Source: Naegleria gruberi
Taxonomy: Eukaryota
DNA: 64,000 bases
Assembly (NCBI GenBank): GCA_000004985.1
Contig: GG738861.1
Direction: 5' to 3' (one strand)
Below the pieces are notes generated by a model. It had not been told where the DNA came from. It did no database searches and saw nothing but the letters and a program-made list of their open reading frames with translations. This document shows, one piece after another, positions 41,472 through 48,020 of this stretch; position 1 is the first letter of the stretch, and each line of letters starts with the position of its first letter. The position numbers were made by a program, and so were the translations under genes.

Positions 41472-42062
41472 TTAATCATTTCTATCCATATCCTTTTCAA
41501 CTCTTCCTCTTTGCATTTCCAAGAACTTTTTGACTCTTTCGTCATTCTTTGTTTTTTCTTGCCAATACAAATTATAGTTACTGGCATTACCAAGTTCAAC
41601 TTGTTGCATATTCTTGGCCAAATCAACTTCTTCTTGACTTTGTGAAGATTGCCAATTATCCATGTAGGATTTAGTTTCAGGCATTTTAGAAACAATCCAC
41701 TCCTTGATAGCTGGTTGGGAAATGGCAAAAACAACTCCGAAAGGATACAACAAATACCAACCAAACTTGAAAGCTTCACGGCCAAATCTATATTTAATAG
41801 GAGGAATGTGGGAAAGAAGTTTTTGGAAGGAATTTTGTTTTACAGCACGGGTCGGAATTTCACCTAATTTTTGTTTTTCGTCAATGGATTTTTGTATAGA
41901 TTGTTTGTGGAATGTACTATATAAAGTTGGAATATCACCATTTGCACTGTGTTCACGAAGAGGTGTAAATGAAGATGATGATGGTTTGCTGGATGATGAT
42001 TCAGTCATTTTTTTAATTTGGATAAAATGTGTTTGGAGGACAATTTTGAAACAATTCGCCAC
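41472..42062 (-). CDS. Small membrane protein (about 178 aa if translation starts at Met 42008), function unknown
   Basis: One predicted TM helix FKFGWYLLYPFGVVFAISQPAI. The likely real start is MTESSSSKPSSSS at 42008 rather than the first in-frame Met of the track ORF. Confidence 0.4.
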   Translation of the reverse strand: MANCFKIVLQTHFIQIKKMTESSSSKPSSSSFTPLREHSANGDIPTLYSTFHKQSIQKSIDEKQKLGEIPTRAVKQNSFQKLLSHIPPIKYRFGREAFKFGWYLLYPFGVVFAISQPAIKEWIVSKMPETKSYMDNWQSSQSQEEVDLAKNMQQVELGNASNYNLYWQEKTKNDERVKKFLEMQRGRVEKDMDRND

Positions 42063-42555: not shown

Positions 42556-45500
42556 ATGTCTCAAAATCCTCTTCTTTCTGCTCCGATGAAGAAGGAAAAT
42601 CAAAGTGATTTAAATTCGTTGAAGAGTTGTAATTTAATATTGTTGATTGGGAGAAGATGTTCGAATAAGACACTTTGTTATCAGAGGAATTTTTCAGCGA
42701 GCCATGAGAGGATTTCTCTCGAGGAGTGGAAGAAGGATAATTTATCTATTCATGCTACATTTAAAAAGATTATTAAAAAGTTGGAAAAGGTATAGTATTT
42801 GTGGCGGAATTCTATTAGAAAGTTTAAAGAAAAACGTAGTTATTGATGACACTAATTTGGTGAAAGAAACTAGGAAATCTCTAATTGACAAAATCAAACA
42901 AAGTATTCCTTCATGCACAGTTGGGGCACTCTACTTTAATTGTGAAAATCCAAAATTATTAGAGTTTCAATTTTACATGAATCAAACAATGAGCTTTTTT
43001 GTGGATAGATATTGCTCAAATTCATCTTCTATTCCTCTAACTCTTACTACTGATGGACCATTTCAAACATCAAACATTTTGGATGATGAGAAGAAATCAA
43101 TAGTACCAACTAAGGATGAAGGGTTTGATACAATTATTGAACAACCTGTAAAATTAACTATACTGAACAGGGATAGAATTGAATTTAATCATCAGGGACT
43201 AATTGTGGATGGGTTAATATTTGTTCATTCAATGCTCGTCGATTCGGATACAGATTCTGGACCTCTGTCCCATGTTCATTGGATTTTTACTCAATGGATG
43301 AAAATCAAACCTAACGGTAGAATAATTGTAATTCTTATCGAGAAAGACTTTGATAGGCTGTGTGATTCCCTCAAATCTAAGAAAACATTCGAACAATTTC
43401 AAACCTGGTTATCAAAGACATGTTGTAAATACTTTCCATTCCCAATTTATACTGTACAGATTAGTAACTCTAATTTCTCTCAACTCAAAAGAGATGAAAC
43501 ACTATTATTTTCTACCTTATTTTACTATCAATCACTGGCTGCTTCGGAATCACTAGTTCTGACCTCTCCATTTATATCACAAAGTTTAGCCCAACTCAGT
43601 GGTGCCAATACAACTGCCTCCACAAGACACAAGAAATTTTTCAAGCAAGAATGTAACCTAGATGATTCGTGTATTTACTTTAACAGCGATTTGTACTTTA
43701 AAATGTCTAAAATAGGACTTTTGCTGTTGGATTTTTCAAGTATTTCAGAAATATCAATAGCAGAAATTAACAGCATTCAAATGGAACAAAAATTTGCACT
43801 TTGTCAATTAGATTATAGAACTAATCAGCCATCCTATTTTAAACAAATTGAATTTGTTCAACTTAACGATTGGAAACCAGATGGTAAATCTATTTCAAAA
43901 TTTATAGGAAGATTTCCACTTGTTCAAGAATTAACTGTAAATCACACAAATAATTTCAGTATTGGTATTTTTAAGGATATTCAAAAGAAGGAAATCAAAT
44001 CAATACTCTTTGGCGTCATATTAGACACTCACCATATCAAACAATTCTCTTCTCAAAATGATTTCAACAACTTTGTACAATACTATGAACGAATTAATGA
44101 GTATAGTGTATCTAATCAAATGAACAACGCAATAGAAACCATGAATAATGAAAGAAAGAGATTTTCACCAAAGCAAACTTCTAGGTTATCAAAGGGTCTT
44201 GAGGTTGGAACTAATAGCCCAAGCTCTTCGAAATCTCAAGCTTCTGCTCCTGTAACAACGTCTGATGGAAAAACCTCAGATATTTATCAATTTCCGGTAA
44301 CAGATATGAGTATTTCTTCAATTTGTGACTACTTTGGATTACTGACATTCCAGAAAGGAAGGGACATGGAAACCCAAATTTATGATGTAATGGTAAAACT
44401 CATTCCAGAAAAACCAAATCATTTTAAATTATATGCCAAGTGTTCCAGCGCAACTGAGAAGGATACTTTTTACAGAGAGGAGATCCTTATGAAACAAGGT
44501 AAAATTGTTAAAGGAATTTGTACATGCCCTATTGGAAGCCAAGGAAAATGTAAACATGTTTGTGCCAGTATATTATCCTATGTGTCCATTATTTCTAACA
44601 GGAATATGGGAAATGAGCAGAAAATTGAGGAAAAGGAAAAGATTCTAAAATCTGGATCACTTGGCTCTCAATCAGAAAGTCAACTCAGTGAATCCAAAGT
44701 CATATCCCAAGATCCTCCACCAGTCTCATTTGCTGTAAAGCCAGAATCATCTGTAGAGCCATCTCAAGAACCAAAAAAGAAGAAAACTCTACCAAGTTGG
44801 ATGGGTGGCTCAAAAGAAAAGCCACAAAAGTCTTCCTCCACCAAGTCTGATTCAAAATCGGATCTCAAAAAACCAAAAACTAGTTTCTTTTTGTATTGTG
44901 ATGAGTATAGAGATGCAGTTAAGGAAGAGTTGGGAGGAAAGGTTGCTGCTTCTGAAGTGGCAAAAGAATTAGGAGCCAGGTGGAAGCAATTATCAGAAGA
45001 GGAAAAACAAGTTTATGTTGACAAGCACAAGGAATTAGCCAATGAATACGCCGAGAAGAAGAAGGAAATTAAATCCAAAAACAAAACAGATTCAGAGTCT
45101 ACGAGCACGAATGAAAAACCAAAAACAAACAAAAAGAAAGTGAAAAAGGAATCTGTGGATAATGATCCAATAGAAGAGAGTGATGAAGAGGAAGACGAAT
45201 CATTTGGAAATATATTCTTCTCAAAACAAAAACAAAAATCCTCTGAAGCCAAGCAAGAATCCAAGGATAGCTCCATAAGGCCAATTCCAGAAATGTCACC
45301 AGAGAATGTCACCAAATCAAAACCACAACCTGCAACAATTGTGAAGAAGGAACAACGCAGTGATGACGAAGATGAAGCATTTGGAAATATTTTCTTTTCA
45401 AAACCGTCATCTAAACCTTCAGTTGTCACAACCAGTGAAAAACCAGTTCTCAATTCTGTACCTAGTGTCATCATAAAGCAAGAACCTCAGAGCCCTAAAA

Positions 45501-46264
45501 AGAGAAAGCTCCCCAGTCCTGTTAAGCCAACAGTTCAGAAACAAAATGAAGAGGATGAATCCTCTGATGAGGATGTTGGCAGTATATTCTTTGCAACATC
45601 AAAGAAAAAGAAACCAAATAACTTGGAAGAAACTAATGTAAAACCTGTTAAACCTGTTTTGCAAAGTAATACAGTTGAAGAGAGAAAACCTATCCATGAA
45701 ACAAAACAAGCAATGGATGAAAGCGATGATGAAGATGCAAGCAGCATTTTCTTTTCCTCCTCTAAAAAGAAACCAAATGTCGAAACGAAGAAAGAACAGT
45801 TAATTACGCCCATTAGCTCAACAACAGAAAAAAAAGATTCAAATCTGGGTAAAGATCGAATGGAAGAAAGTGATGATGACGAAGAAGGTGGTATTGCAAA
45901 TATCTTCTTCTCCAAGCAAACAAAGAAGAAACCATCCTCTCCAATTATTACAAAACAATCAACTGTTTCGAATACTAGTGCACTTTCGAGTAATATTTCT
46001 TCAACAAGTAAGCCAACACTAGCTCCAAACAATAAGAAAGATATGGATGAAACAGATGACGATGAGGAAGATGTTAGTTTTGCCAATATTTTCTTCTCCA
46101 AATCTACAAAGAAACAACCTCCTCCAGCTTCATCATCTACAAACTCATCTACTTCATCAGTTCCAAAACCTTCATCTTCCTCTCCATCCAAAACTAATAA
46201 TCAGGAGAAGAACACAAAGAAAGTGACATCCCTTAAAGCTATGATGGCAGAATTTGATTTTTAA
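42556..46264 (+). CDS. Multidomain protein: PNK/AAA_33-like P-loop kinase domain, SWIM zinc finger, HMG box and six tandem acidic 'FGNIFFSK' FF motifs. Two exons: 42556..42789 and 42830..46264; the 40-nt intron is 42790..42829
   Basis: Exon 1: MSQNPLL...CNLILLIGRRCSNKT (atypical Walker A, G-x5-KT). GTATAG donor at 42790 and TTTAAAG acceptor; the phase-0 splice gives ...KNVVIDDTNLVKETRKSLIDKI, a PNK-family DxTN signature. SWIM: CTCPIGSQGKCKHVCASIL (CxCxnCxH). HMG box: KKPKTSFFLYCDEYRDAVKEELGGKVAASEVAKELGARWKQLSEEEKQVYVDKHKELANEYAEKKKE. Six repeats of [D/E-rich]-(F/A)GNIFFSK-[K-rich] between about 45170 and 46125. Confidence 0.75.
45170..46125 (+). repeat. Six-copy intragenic tandem repeat, about 160-200 nt period, each with an acidic tract followed by xGNIFF(S/A)K and a lysine-rich tract
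   Basis: SDEEEDESFGNIFFSKQKQK; SDDEDEAFGNIFFSKPSSK; SSDEDVGSIFFATSKKKK; SDDEDASSIFFSSSKKK; SDDDEEGGIANIFFSKQTKKK; TDDDEEDVSFANIFFSKSTKK. The cores are also similar at the nucleotide level (tttggaaatat[at]ttctt[ct]tcaaaa). Confidence 0.85.
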
Positions 46265-46365: not shown

Positions 46366-47217
46366 ATGATTGGTTGTAAGATTAATGATCCGAGTTTGAT
46401 TTCCAAAGTAATAGAATTGATGAGTCACTTTACAGATTTGGTCAACTTTGAAGTATCCTCCTCAAGTCTATTCATTCATGCTGTGGATAATTATAAGGTT
46501 GTTCTCTTTGAATTTAGATTATTGGAAAATCAAGCCTTCGTATTTGTTAATCAGGATCAAACTAGAAGAATTAAACTACCCAACTTTGAGAAGCACTATG
46601 GAATTAATTTGAAAATATTTTCCCAAGTAACAAAAGGCTTGAAATCCGATGATAGTTTGTATATTCAATTTCCATCCAATGACGAAGCCTCAGACATACT
46701 ACTCCACATCAAGAAGAAGAATCCACTCAGAAAGTTTACCTATCAACTCTCACAATTCGAAATATGTGATAATGAAAGTTATGAAATTAATGATTTTGAC
46801 CAACAAGCAAGAGTGGAAATATTAATGAATACTCAAAACTTTTCTCAAATGATTCAAGACTTGCACCACTTGAATGGTAATCGATTCAGATTAGAAGTAG
46901 AGAAGAGGGATGATTTTGTACTAACTCTCAAAACTTGGAATGAATTCATCAAGGCAAGTATTGATATTTCCAATGGTGAAGAAAATGTTTCCATTAGTAT
47001 AAGTGAGAGGGAAGAAGAATTTGTTAATATTGGTAATGAATATCCATTCAAAATACTATCAGTTATTTCTCGTGCAAGTAAGATTTCAGATCAGGTATTG
47101 TTTCAAGTTTGTGAGAATGGTCCTCTTGGAATATTATATGGATTAGAGGGAGGTAGTTTCCAATTCTTTGTGGCTCCATTCATTCCAAATGATGATTCCG
47201 AAGATGTTGATGATTAA
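46366..47217 (+). CDS. Highly divergent PCNA-like sliding-clamp paralog (283 aa)
   Basis: Collinear with PCNA end to end but with low identity: [43 protein letters not shown] ~ [69 protein letters not shown] ~ [25 protein letters not shown]; C-terminus [21 protein letters not shown] ~ GHLKYYLAPKIEDEEGS. ATG at 46366, about 100 nt downstream of the HMG/SWIM gene on the same strand. Confidence 0.8.
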   Translation: [283 protein letters not shown]

Positions 47218-47309: not shown

Positions 47310-48020
47310 TCAGTATTGATCTACCTCAGTATCAGGAAGGACTGTATAAACAACTTCTCCAGATTGGTCTTTGGTGAAAGTAATAAACTCTAGTTTTTCA
47401 CTTGATAAACTAGTACTATCCATTGTCTTTGTCATGACCTTGACAGCCAACTTTTTAGCAGCACCAATCTTCAAATCCTCCTTCCATTCTTGTTTCAAGA
47501 TTGATTGAGCAGCTTGATTATTAGCTCCGATTGCTGTAGCTTTCCATCCACCATAATTTCCTGAAGGATCAGAATGATACAATTGATATCCATATTGTTT
47601 ATCCCAACCAGCATACAAGAAACTGACGCCAAATGGTCTCATACCACCAAATTGTGTGTAACTTTGCTTTGAATCACAGAGAGTTTTTACAAGTTGTTCT
47701 ACTGGTATTGGTTCTTGATACATGAATTGATAACGTTGAGCGTGGAGACGAGCAGAGTTAATCAAAATGTTGGCATCAGCTGTAATACCAGCAACAGCAC
47801 ATCCAATATGTTTATCTAATTTGTACATCTTTTCTGTTTTCTTTTCATTATCGAGAAGCTTGGAAGTAATTTTCTTTTCAGCAGCTAATACAATACCATC
47901 GGTGGCAATAATACCGAGAGCAGCACCAGCATGGCTGATAGCTTCCATAGCATATTCGACTTGATACAATCGTCCTTCAGGTGAAAATGTTGTAGTTCTA
48001 TTGTCGTATCTTCTACTCAT
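47310..48020 (-). CDS. PSMA4: 20S proteasome alpha subunit type-4 (alpha3 / PSMA4 / Pre9 orthologue)
   Basis: [50 protein letters not shown] is near-identical to human PSMA4 [50 protein letters not shown]. Collinear throughout, including [14 protein letters not shown]. Confidence 0.95.

Follow-up and report, generated by a model that had tools for sequence, protein, structure and literature searches.

A minimal Ku-binding motif (KBM) has the form R-x-x-P-x-W, with a basic patch ahead of a hydrophobic residue, Pro and Trp (PMC4831024). A Met directly after the Trp, as found in APLF, is reported to confer a more than 30-fold higher affinity for the von Willebrand A (vWA) domain of Ku80 (bioRxiv 10.64898/2026.07.22.740027). 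Another short docking motif, the Rev1-interacting region (RIR), forms in its bound state a three-turn helix after two adjacent Phe residues and is anchored on both of them (PMC5295019). The RIR-type motif of XRCC1 has a far higher affinity for the catalytic domain of PNKP than for Rev1 (PMC5625035). Here we analyze a gene of Naegleria gruberi in which a PNKP-like module and candidate motifs of these kinds meet in one protein. The gene lies on the plus strand at 42556..46264 of a 64,000-nucleotide (nt) stretch of contig GG738861.1 (assembly GCA_000004985.1), referred to below as the window, and consists of two exons that encode a product of 1222 amino acids (aa) after in-frame splicing. We favor, with a probability of about 0.5, the reading that the whole protein is a non-catalytic DNA-break scaffold of the APLF/XRCC1/MRI kind, possibly tethered to Ku.

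In mammalian PNKP, the HAD domain precedes the kinase domain (residues ~220–370 of the catalytic fragment), whereas in the N. gruberi protein the order is reversed, with the kinase-like domain first. Moreover, no FHA domain was found in the latter, a Gly of its Walker A motif is replaced by Asn, the DxDxT motif is absent, and there are ~880 further residues that include a SWIM finger, an HMG box and short motifs. Kinase-then-HAD is also the order in phage T4 Pnkp. However, T4 Pnkp is a small and active enzyme with intact motifs, whereas the motifs of the N. gruberi protein are degenerate and a large non-enzymatic part is attached to them. The proposed likeness to APLF and MRI/CYREN lies in a tether to the Ku80 vWA domain through a basic patch and L-P-x-W-M in a flexible region, accompanied by further docking motifs (PMC4831024; bioRxiv 10.64898/2026.07.22.740027) and, as in MRI, by a separate C-terminal motif. 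Outside the motif there is no homology: APLF has FHA and PBZ domains, MRI is small and disordered, and neither has a kinase, HAD, SWIM or HMG domain. The likeness to XRCC1 is that FF motifs are joined with a PNKP-like module, but in the XRCC1 case the motif and the PNKP module sit on different proteins, and BRCT domains are absent here. That the IFF motifs of the N. gruberi protein contact its own PNKP-like module is pure speculation. What it has in common with APLF, MRI and XRCC1 alike is a design of folded modules and short docking motifs on flexible linkers. With ZSWIM8 and SWS1/ZSWIM7 it shares the C-x-C-x(n)-C-x-H ligands and the upstream 'FQRG...Y' strands of an extended SWIM domain, but nothing else, and the SWIM finger has been lost in most animal members of the family.

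The N-terminal PNKP-like module

Judging from the predicted structure, the N-terminal third of the protein is a complete PNKP-like kinase plus HAD module. The P-loop kinase-like domain (42628..43015, aa ~25–140) spans the intron. It carries a deviant Walker A motif, GRRCSNKT (42649..42672), in which the second Gly, before Lys, is replaced by Asn, and a Walker-B/DxTN-type strand, VVIDDTNL (42836..42859, aa 81–88), which is aligned with VVIDNTN of PNKP in the profile alignment. Pfam and PDB sequence searches with the whole protein returned only the HMG box, without any kinase match in Pfam. When the N-terminal segment was used in isolation, AAA_33 became the top family both for N. gruberi (15.5 bits against a cut-off of 27, E = 0.022) and for the N. 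lovaniensis ortholog (E = 0.0059), in each case followed by tRNA_lig_kinase. A profile built from 24 family members had the mammalian PNKP kinase domain as its best PDB match (E = 1e-5), with both Walker A and VVIDxTN aligned, and 13 of these 24 members matched AAA_33, the best at 2.4e-6. Structure prediction gave the same answer. An AlphaFold2 (AF2) model of the N. lovaniensis ortholog, made with a 40-sequence alignment, had a predicted local distance difference test (pLDDT) score of 74.8 and a predicted template modeling (pTM) score of 0.79; an alignment of three sequences yielded a pLDDT of only 33.5, so that relatives collected with HMMER were needed for a usable model. The kinase-like domain of the N. 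lovaniensis model has the PNK-type kinase fold, and the eight best Foldseek matches were all mouse PNKP (E = 5e-6 to 4e-5). At the level of the family and of the predicted fold, the PNKP-family kinase-like domain is clear.

Behind the kinase-like domain, the model shows the strand–helix repeats of a HAD Rossmann-like fold (43109..43615, aa ~172–340). No match to a PNK3P or HAD profile was obtained; the closest were that of one family member to PGP_phosphatase (E = 0.016) and that of the family profile to 2o2x (E = 2.8). The position of catalytic motif I, DxDx[T/V], is occupied by LIVDGLI in N. gruberi and by FIDAHS, FIQWEG, FLEWTA and similar sequences in relatives, and no member in the family alignment has the second Asp of the motif, as would befit a pseudo-phosphatase. 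An ERCC4 match at aa 236–302 (E = 0.005–0.017) was rejected, since it falls inside the HAD-like domain and other family members do not show it. The HAD-like domain is followed by an alpha/beta region (43628..44200, aa ~345–535), which is conserved across the family and has a pLDDT of 55–89 in the model, but for which no Pfam match was found.

The P-loop is likewise deviant. In place of the canonical GxxxxGK[S/T], the three Naegleria orthologs have GRRCSNKT (N. gruberi), GKKCSNKT (N. lovaniensis) and GNKCSNKT (N. fowleri). The pattern [CSN/CNN/CTN]KT is common to these three and to the metagenomic relatives P0008, P0016 and P0018, whereas ~19 other family members have the canonical GPPxSGKT (for example, GPPCSGKT). 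In the profile alignment, the catalytic Asp of the PNKP 'NRD' motif falls on a variable column, with a conserved Glu or Asp one residue off. Because GRRCSNKT stands instead of GPPxSGKT and DxDxT is missing, we infer a pseudo-enzyme: both active sites of the module appear degenerate in this paralog, which we term HMG-type to distinguish it from an OB-type sister described below, and the module probably serves for binding rather than catalysis. We know of no described pseudo-enzyme derived from PNKP. If the assignment is true, PNKP, a core DNA-end-processing enzyme, has an old non-catalytic paralog family that is used as a scaffold. A first-pass annotation, made from the sequence of the window, had proposed a PNK-family kinase domain with an atypical Walker A and a DxTN-type motif, and both the family profile and the fold agree with it. 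It had overlooked the HAD-fold domain behind the kinase, however, and its remark that PNK kinases process DNA ends is probably inapplicable as enzymology, given the Gly-to-Asn change in Walker A and the absence of DxDxT.

A candidate Ku-binding motif

The motif that says most about function is KKKKTLPSWM (44774..44803), located between the SWIM finger and the HMG box and missed in the first-pass annotation. It is of the APLF type (A-KBM), fits the minimal KBM if Lys is allowed for Arg, and has the high-affinity W-M pair; the surrounding peptide is EPKKKKTLPSWMGGSK, with the Trp being W735. At the equivalent place, [R/K]-x-LP-x-WM is present in N. lovaniensis, N. fowleri and the metagenomic relatives P0006, P0007 and P0043. 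It is further found in Heterostelium (RKLPEWM) and Balamuthia (RRLPEWM), both of which have the Arg, and in the annelid Owenia, the nemertean Lineus and the brachiopod Lingula, while echinoderm members have the weaker forms VPAWM and PPSWM. Overall, the motif occurs in 14 family sequences, always C-terminal to the folded N-terminal domains and before the HMG box or the tail, and comparison of the family sequences showed it to be absent from the OB-type paralogs. A phmmer search of the PDB with the KBM peptide returned nothing useful.

N. gruberi is reported to have DNA-PKcs (PMC8021618), and DNA-PK-type end-joining machinery is therefore plausible in this organism. We regard the proposal that LPSWM tethers the protein to Ku as tentative, with the odds somewhat against it. 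Should it be true, a motif so far characterized in vertebrate APLF, WRN and MRI would be far older and would become testable outside animals. In addition, there would be a candidate end-joining accessory factor for lineages that have kept DNA-PKcs, among them Naegleria, dictyostelids, echinoderms and cnidarians (PMC8021618).

SWIM finger, HMG box and C-terminal tail

An extended SWIM zinc-finger domain (44318..44593, aa ~575–666) follows the alpha/beta region, with its Cys/His ligands in CTCPIGSQGKCKH (44519..44557, aa 642–654). All four ligands of C-x-C-x(n)-C-x-H are invariant among 18 relatives, and the upstream FG..FQRG..Y strands are conserved as well. The N. gruberi region alone scored 15.5 bits, which is below the Pfam cut-off of 19.6 (PF04434). 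Nevertheless, SWIM was the only consistent Pfam family in 14 of the 18 relatives (best E = 3.1e-5), and the top PDB match of the family profile, although weak (E = 0.034), was the SWIM domain of ZSWIM8.

For the HMG box (PF00505; 44864..45070, aa 757–825), the Pfam match covers aa 758–824 with 50.9 bits against a cut-off of 25.4 (E = 2.2e-13), increasing to 56.8 bits (3e-15) when the segment is isolated, and the best PDB matches are the boxes of HMGB1 and HMGB3 (E = 1e-11). The Ser in its TSFFLY segment occupies a position that we take to mark the non-sequence-specific HMGB type as opposed to SOX boxes. A match to HMG_WDHD1 (34.7–40 bits) remained below the cut-off of 51.6, hence we propose no specific link to AND-1/Ctf4.

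The long low-complexity tail, on which KKKKTLPSWM and the HMG box also lie, is presumed to be disordered. It contains SPKKRKL (45473..45511), which reads as a likely classical nuclear localization signal, and ends in the conserved motif KNTKKVTSLKAMMAEFDF-COOH (46208..46261), in which hydrophobic and Phe residues behind a basic patch form the extreme C-terminus. The corresponding ends are TSLKSMMDAFF(D/E)F in N. lovaniensis and N. fowleri, KK[IV]SLKxL[LMF] in protist relatives and FSFLD(D/E)IF in animal relatives. The motif loosely resembles the XLF-like motifs described in PMC4831024.

The tail also repeats a unit composed of an acidic tract, a core of the form hydrophobic-x-[N/S]-IFF and a Lys tract. 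The six copies are IEESDEEEDESFGNIFFSKQKQKSSEA (45170..45250, motif at aa 873), KEQRSDDEDEAFGNIFFSKPSSKPSVV (45347..45427, aa 932, with IFFSKPSS), QNEEDESSDEDVGSIFFATSKKKKPNN (45542..45622, aa 997), KQAMDESDDEDASSIFFSSSKKKPNVE (45704..45784, aa 1051), MEESDDDEEGGIANIFFSKQTKKKPSS (45860..45940, aa 1103) and DETDDDEEDVSFANIFFSKSTKKQPPP (46046..46126, aa 1165). Among 20000 shuffles of the tail none produced six IFF motifs, the maximum being two. From start to start the repeats are 147–195 nt (about 50–65 aa) apart, the spacers have diverged, and likeness at the DNA level (60–80% identity) is confined to the cores. Such a pattern suggests that selection has maintained the motif, as opposed to the copies having arisen by recent duplication. 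Four copies are present in N. lovaniensis, three and a degenerate one in N. fowleri, and one to four in other protist members; over the family, copy numbers run from one to six. The family-wide core consists of a hydrophobic residue, any residue, [D/E/N/S], [I/L], F and F, usually followed by Lys or Arg and Pro, whereas animal members have LDDIF, with a single Phe, and then KPPPK. CK2-type S/T-D-D-E sites stand ahead of each N. gruberi repeat, but since N. lovaniensis and N. fowleri do not share them, they were left out of the analysis.

The kinase, the SWIM finger, the HMG box and the FF repeats are the four elements that had been named in the first-pass annotation, and all of them are present. 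The SWIM assignment is supported by the invariant ligands and the Pfam matches of the relatives, the HMG box by its own E-value, and the FF motifs by their conservation in orthologs and by the shuffling result, although the copies are dispersed rather than tandem. Besides the HAD domain and KKKKTLPSWM, that annotation had missed the C-terminal motif and membership in a family. Taken as a whole, the architecture of the protein is something of which we are highly confident.

A family found in protists and invertebrates

An HMMER search of 1.84 billion representatives yielded 47 proteins at E ≤ 1e-3, about half of which were looked up. The named protist members come from Naegleria (three species), Willaertia magna, Acrasis kona, Heterostelium album and Balamuthia mandrillaris. 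The named animal members come from Acropora cervicornis, Patiria miniata, Diadema antillarum, Ptychodera flava, Owenia fusiformis, Lineus longissimus and Lingula anatina. The family thus extends over Heterolobosea, Amoebozoa, Cnidaria, echinoderms, a hemichordate, an annelid, a nemertean and a brachiopod, while vertebrate, insect, nematode, yeast and plant proteins are not among the members with organism names. In other words, the fusion is no isolated case but belongs to a conserved family. The members with organism names are labeled as hypothetical or uncharacterized, or are named after a single domain. The first annotator knew of no described protein with this domain combination, and our literature search, which included locus tags and accessions, likewise found no relevant paper on the combination or on any family member. 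The gene itself is already public in truncated form, and all its parts are of known kinds; undescribed in the literature found are the family, the PNKP-derived pseudo-enzyme core and the candidate Ku motif.

N. gruberi also encodes a paralog, XP_002678062 (P0012), which owes its annotation as a replication factor A protein to its OB fold. In this protein an RPA70-like OB fold follows the SWIM finger and replaces the HMG box. With the HMG-type protein it has in common the HAD-like domain, the middle region and the SWIM finger, as well as a single EDIFF motif and the C-terminal KKVSLKFLL; LPxWM is lacking. Since its annotation starts inside the HAD-like region, the N-terminus is probably truncated, as is that of the public model of the HMG-type gene (see below). 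To judge from its sequence, the OB-type paralog has probably been mis-named as an RPA subunit.

Five animal members (P0032, P0053, P0042, P0047 and P0039) share a helix-like motif about 40–60 residues past LPxWM, [T/I]-[V/I/L]-Y-[C/V]-[L/M]-[S/T/D]-x-x-E-L-x-x-x-A-x-x-h-L, roughly where the first helix of the Naegleria HMG box (TSFFLYCDEYRDAVKEEL) sits. It could be a remnant of an HMG box or a different module.

Gene model and annotation

Exon 1 (42556..42789) encodes aa 1–78, which comprise the N-terminal part of the kinase-like domain, including the P-loop; an in-frame stop lies 8 codons 5′ of the ATG at 42556. It is followed by a 40-nt GT..AG intron (42790..42829, GTATAG...TTTAAAG) and by exon 2 (42830..46264), a single continuous open reading frame (ORF) of 3435 nt that encodes aa 79–1222 and ends with the stop codon at 46262..46264. 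Without splicing, the frame of exon 1 hits a TAG at 42793..42795. Because GRRCSNKT in exon 1 and VVIDDTNL in exon 2 belong to one fold, the splice is required. Nine in-frame GT..AG joins are possible, but the conserved junction FKKIIKKLEK|KNVVIDD is kept only by that of 40 nt. The same junction is seen in N. lovaniensis (FKKVIKKLEKQCKIVIDD), whose gene is interrupted at the same place, and its equivalent exists in N. fowleri. Exon 1 is 64–65% identical to the N-terminus of the N. lovaniensis protein, and the spliced product aligns with the 1237-aa N. fowleri ortholog FDP41_002535 in a single collinear BLASTP segment (aa 18–1222 against 12–1237, 43.6% identity). The intron and its in-frame splicing, which the first reading of the window had already proposed, are thereby well supported. 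The long ORF is 100% identical to a public 1091-aa N. gruberi 'predicted protein' (P0001), which, however, begins at Met132 and lacks exon 1, the intron and the entire kinase-like domain (42556..42949). The public N. gruberi gene model is N-terminally truncated, and the spliced model presented here improves on it.

Whether the kinase/HAD half and the SWIM/HMG/repeat half could be two adjacent genes, with the long protein an artifact of the gene model, is a question raised by N. lovaniensis, in which two genes of 564 and 664 aa are annotated, separated by 53 nt, and a stop codon interrupts the linker. In N. gruberi, however, the ORF runs uninterrupted across the junction, and the junction is also read straight through in the N. 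fowleri annotation and in an independent assembly fragment (P0004). The two N. lovaniensis halves are offset by a frameshift confined to ~16 nt (L001 11890..11906, near position ~83990 of PYSW02000005.1). Furthermore, the conserved block STIDGKTSDIFQFPVTD lies 5′ of the first in-frame ATG of the N. lovaniensis second half, that is, upstream of any start of that half, and is therefore translatable only from upstream. The fusion extends to the more distant relatives P0006, P0007, P0009 and P0011. We also considered an intron that would heal the split, but no GT..AG candidate keeps the conserved residues, which makes a one-base frameshift likelier. The N. lovaniensis split (PYSW02000005.1, L001 11880..11925) is thus most likely a one-base assembly error, and the sequences at hand indicate that the fusion is real in N. 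gruberi. The two-gene explanation is barely credible, and the single long gene of the first-pass annotation stands.

A possible scaffold at DNA breaks

In the favored scaffold reading, the degenerate PNKP-like module would serve binding instead of catalysis, and the HMG box would hold the protein on distorted or broken double-stranded DNA. LPSWM might tether it to the Ku80 vWA domain at DNA ends, the IFF motifs could recruit several copies of a partner, the C-terminal motif could bring in further factors, and SPKKRKL would act as the nuclear localization signal. The sister OB-type paralog, which is without LPxWM, may do the same job on single-stranded DNA. That the protein is a nuclear DNA-damage scaffold of some sort we consider fairly probable. 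A more far-reaching version, possible but doubtful, is that the family represents an ancient and so far unnoticed end-joining accessory factor, perhaps dating back to the last eukaryotic common ancestor: a Ku-tethered pseudo-enzyme derived from PNKP, in which DNA would be read by the HMG box or OB fold and further repair factors would be gathered by the IFF and C-terminal motifs. If true, amoebae and many marine invertebrates would have a functional counterpart of APLF/MRI. We found the family in no standard model organism.

Several points weigh against the scaffold reading. The folds were predicted on the N. lovaniensis ortholog, which is 52–65% identical in this region by alignment, and the HAD assignment comes from the fold without sequence-profile support. 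The KBM is short, and its minimal form is present in more than 600 human proteins (PMC4831024). The conservation of CSNKT across the HMG-type clade means selection, so that nucleotide binding could be retained; an acidic residue is conserved near the position of the PNKP catalytic Asp, and members with the canonical P-loop may be real kinases. These last points lead to the possibility that the N-terminal module is a working polynucleotide kinase or other 5′-kinase with an unusual P-loop, targeted to DNA by the rest of the protein. True polynucleotide kinases are indeed its nearest relatives in both structure and sequence, GxxxxGK[S/T] and the hhhDDxN strand are retained in most of the family, and even the deviant CSNKT shows conservation within the HMG-type clade. 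Yet the Gly before Lys has become Asn in all three Naegleria HMG-type orthologs, more divergent members of the clade have lost the motif altogether (GPPCSNAS, GASSEQYK), the column of the PNKP catalytic Asp is variable, and the attached HAD domain lacks the catalytic Asp pair in every member. We therefore consider a working kinase very unlikely.

The other alternatives concern the partner of the IFF motifs. The first-pass annotation saw in the six FF motifs a close likeness to Rev1-interacting regions and proposed multivalent docking of the Rev1 type; on this model the protein would offer the Rev1 C-terminal domain several binding sites during translesion synthesis. For the N. gruberi sequence itself, the likeness that it noted is accurate: all six motifs have two adjacent Phe, and cores such as NIFFSKQKQK and NIFFSKSTKK are very similar to the RIRs of pol iota (VLSFFSKKQMQD) and pol kappa (KKSFFDKKRSER) (PMC5295019). 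N. gruberi is also reported to have a POLI gene (PMC8595933), and such FF motifs are promiscuous, as exemplified by that of XRCC1, which binds Rev1, PNKP and SSRP1 (PMC5625035). Within +4 of FF, Pro is absent from five of the six repeats in N. gruberi, but repeat 2 has one at +3, and Pro at +2 or +3 in relatives (IFFTPSK, IFFTPFK, LFFPGMRR, IFFGPSS, IFFPTTE) is at odds with the helix formed by a bound RIR. In addition, animal members have only one Phe, and the conserved upstream positions (hydrophobic at −4, I/L at −1) are not features of RIRs. The family pattern consequently misfits the RIR, and docking to Rev1, being one of several possibilities and not the best supported, fits poorly with the aligned sequences; we rate it as quite unlikely. 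Just as similar to the family core is the PCNA-interacting protein (PIP) box of pol kappa, KHTLDIFFKP (PMC5295019). If the IFF motifs were PIP-like or histone-anchor motifs for PCNA, 9-1-1 or H2A–H2B/H3–H4, the protein would function in replication or at chromatin and not in end joining. The acidic domain of APLF binds histones through acidic tracts and aromatic anchors (PMC6101569, PMC9328677). Multiple copies would also suit a trimeric clamp, and the residues of the C-terminal K[IV]SLKxLL are spaced, in our own reading, as in a degenerate PIP box. Set against this, the hydrophobic residue occupies PIP position 3 instead of 4, there is no Gln, and the long acidic tracts occur only in Naegleria and are no conserved feature of the family; a Rad1/PCNA-like gene next door lends no weight, as it has no synteny in N. 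lovaniensis. Such a clamp- or histone-binding role is unlikely, and the non-catalytic DNA-break scaffold remains our preferred reading.

Neighboring genes

Only ~100 nt past the stop codon of the scaffold candidate begins a gene (46366..47217, plus strand) for a divergent sliding-clamp-like protein of 283 aa, with Pfam matches to Rad1 (31.4 bits), PCNA_N (30.7 bits) and PCNA_C (22.2 bits), which makes it a second gene of the DNA-damage type. No sliding-clamp homolog was found within 10 kb downstream of the N. lovaniensis ortholog; we rejected a linkage, and the adjacency looks coincidental. A further ORF (47310..48020, minus strand; 236 aa) looks by its sequence like a proteasome alpha-type subunit. 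On the other side, a 196-aa ORF (41472..42062, minus strand) is 69% identical to the translation of L001 8874..9398, just upstream of the N. lovaniensis ortholog; this N. lovaniensis counterpart has no Pfam match on record. It is encoded on the same strand as the main gene in N. lovaniensis but on the opposite strand in N. gruberi, which suggests a small local inversion.

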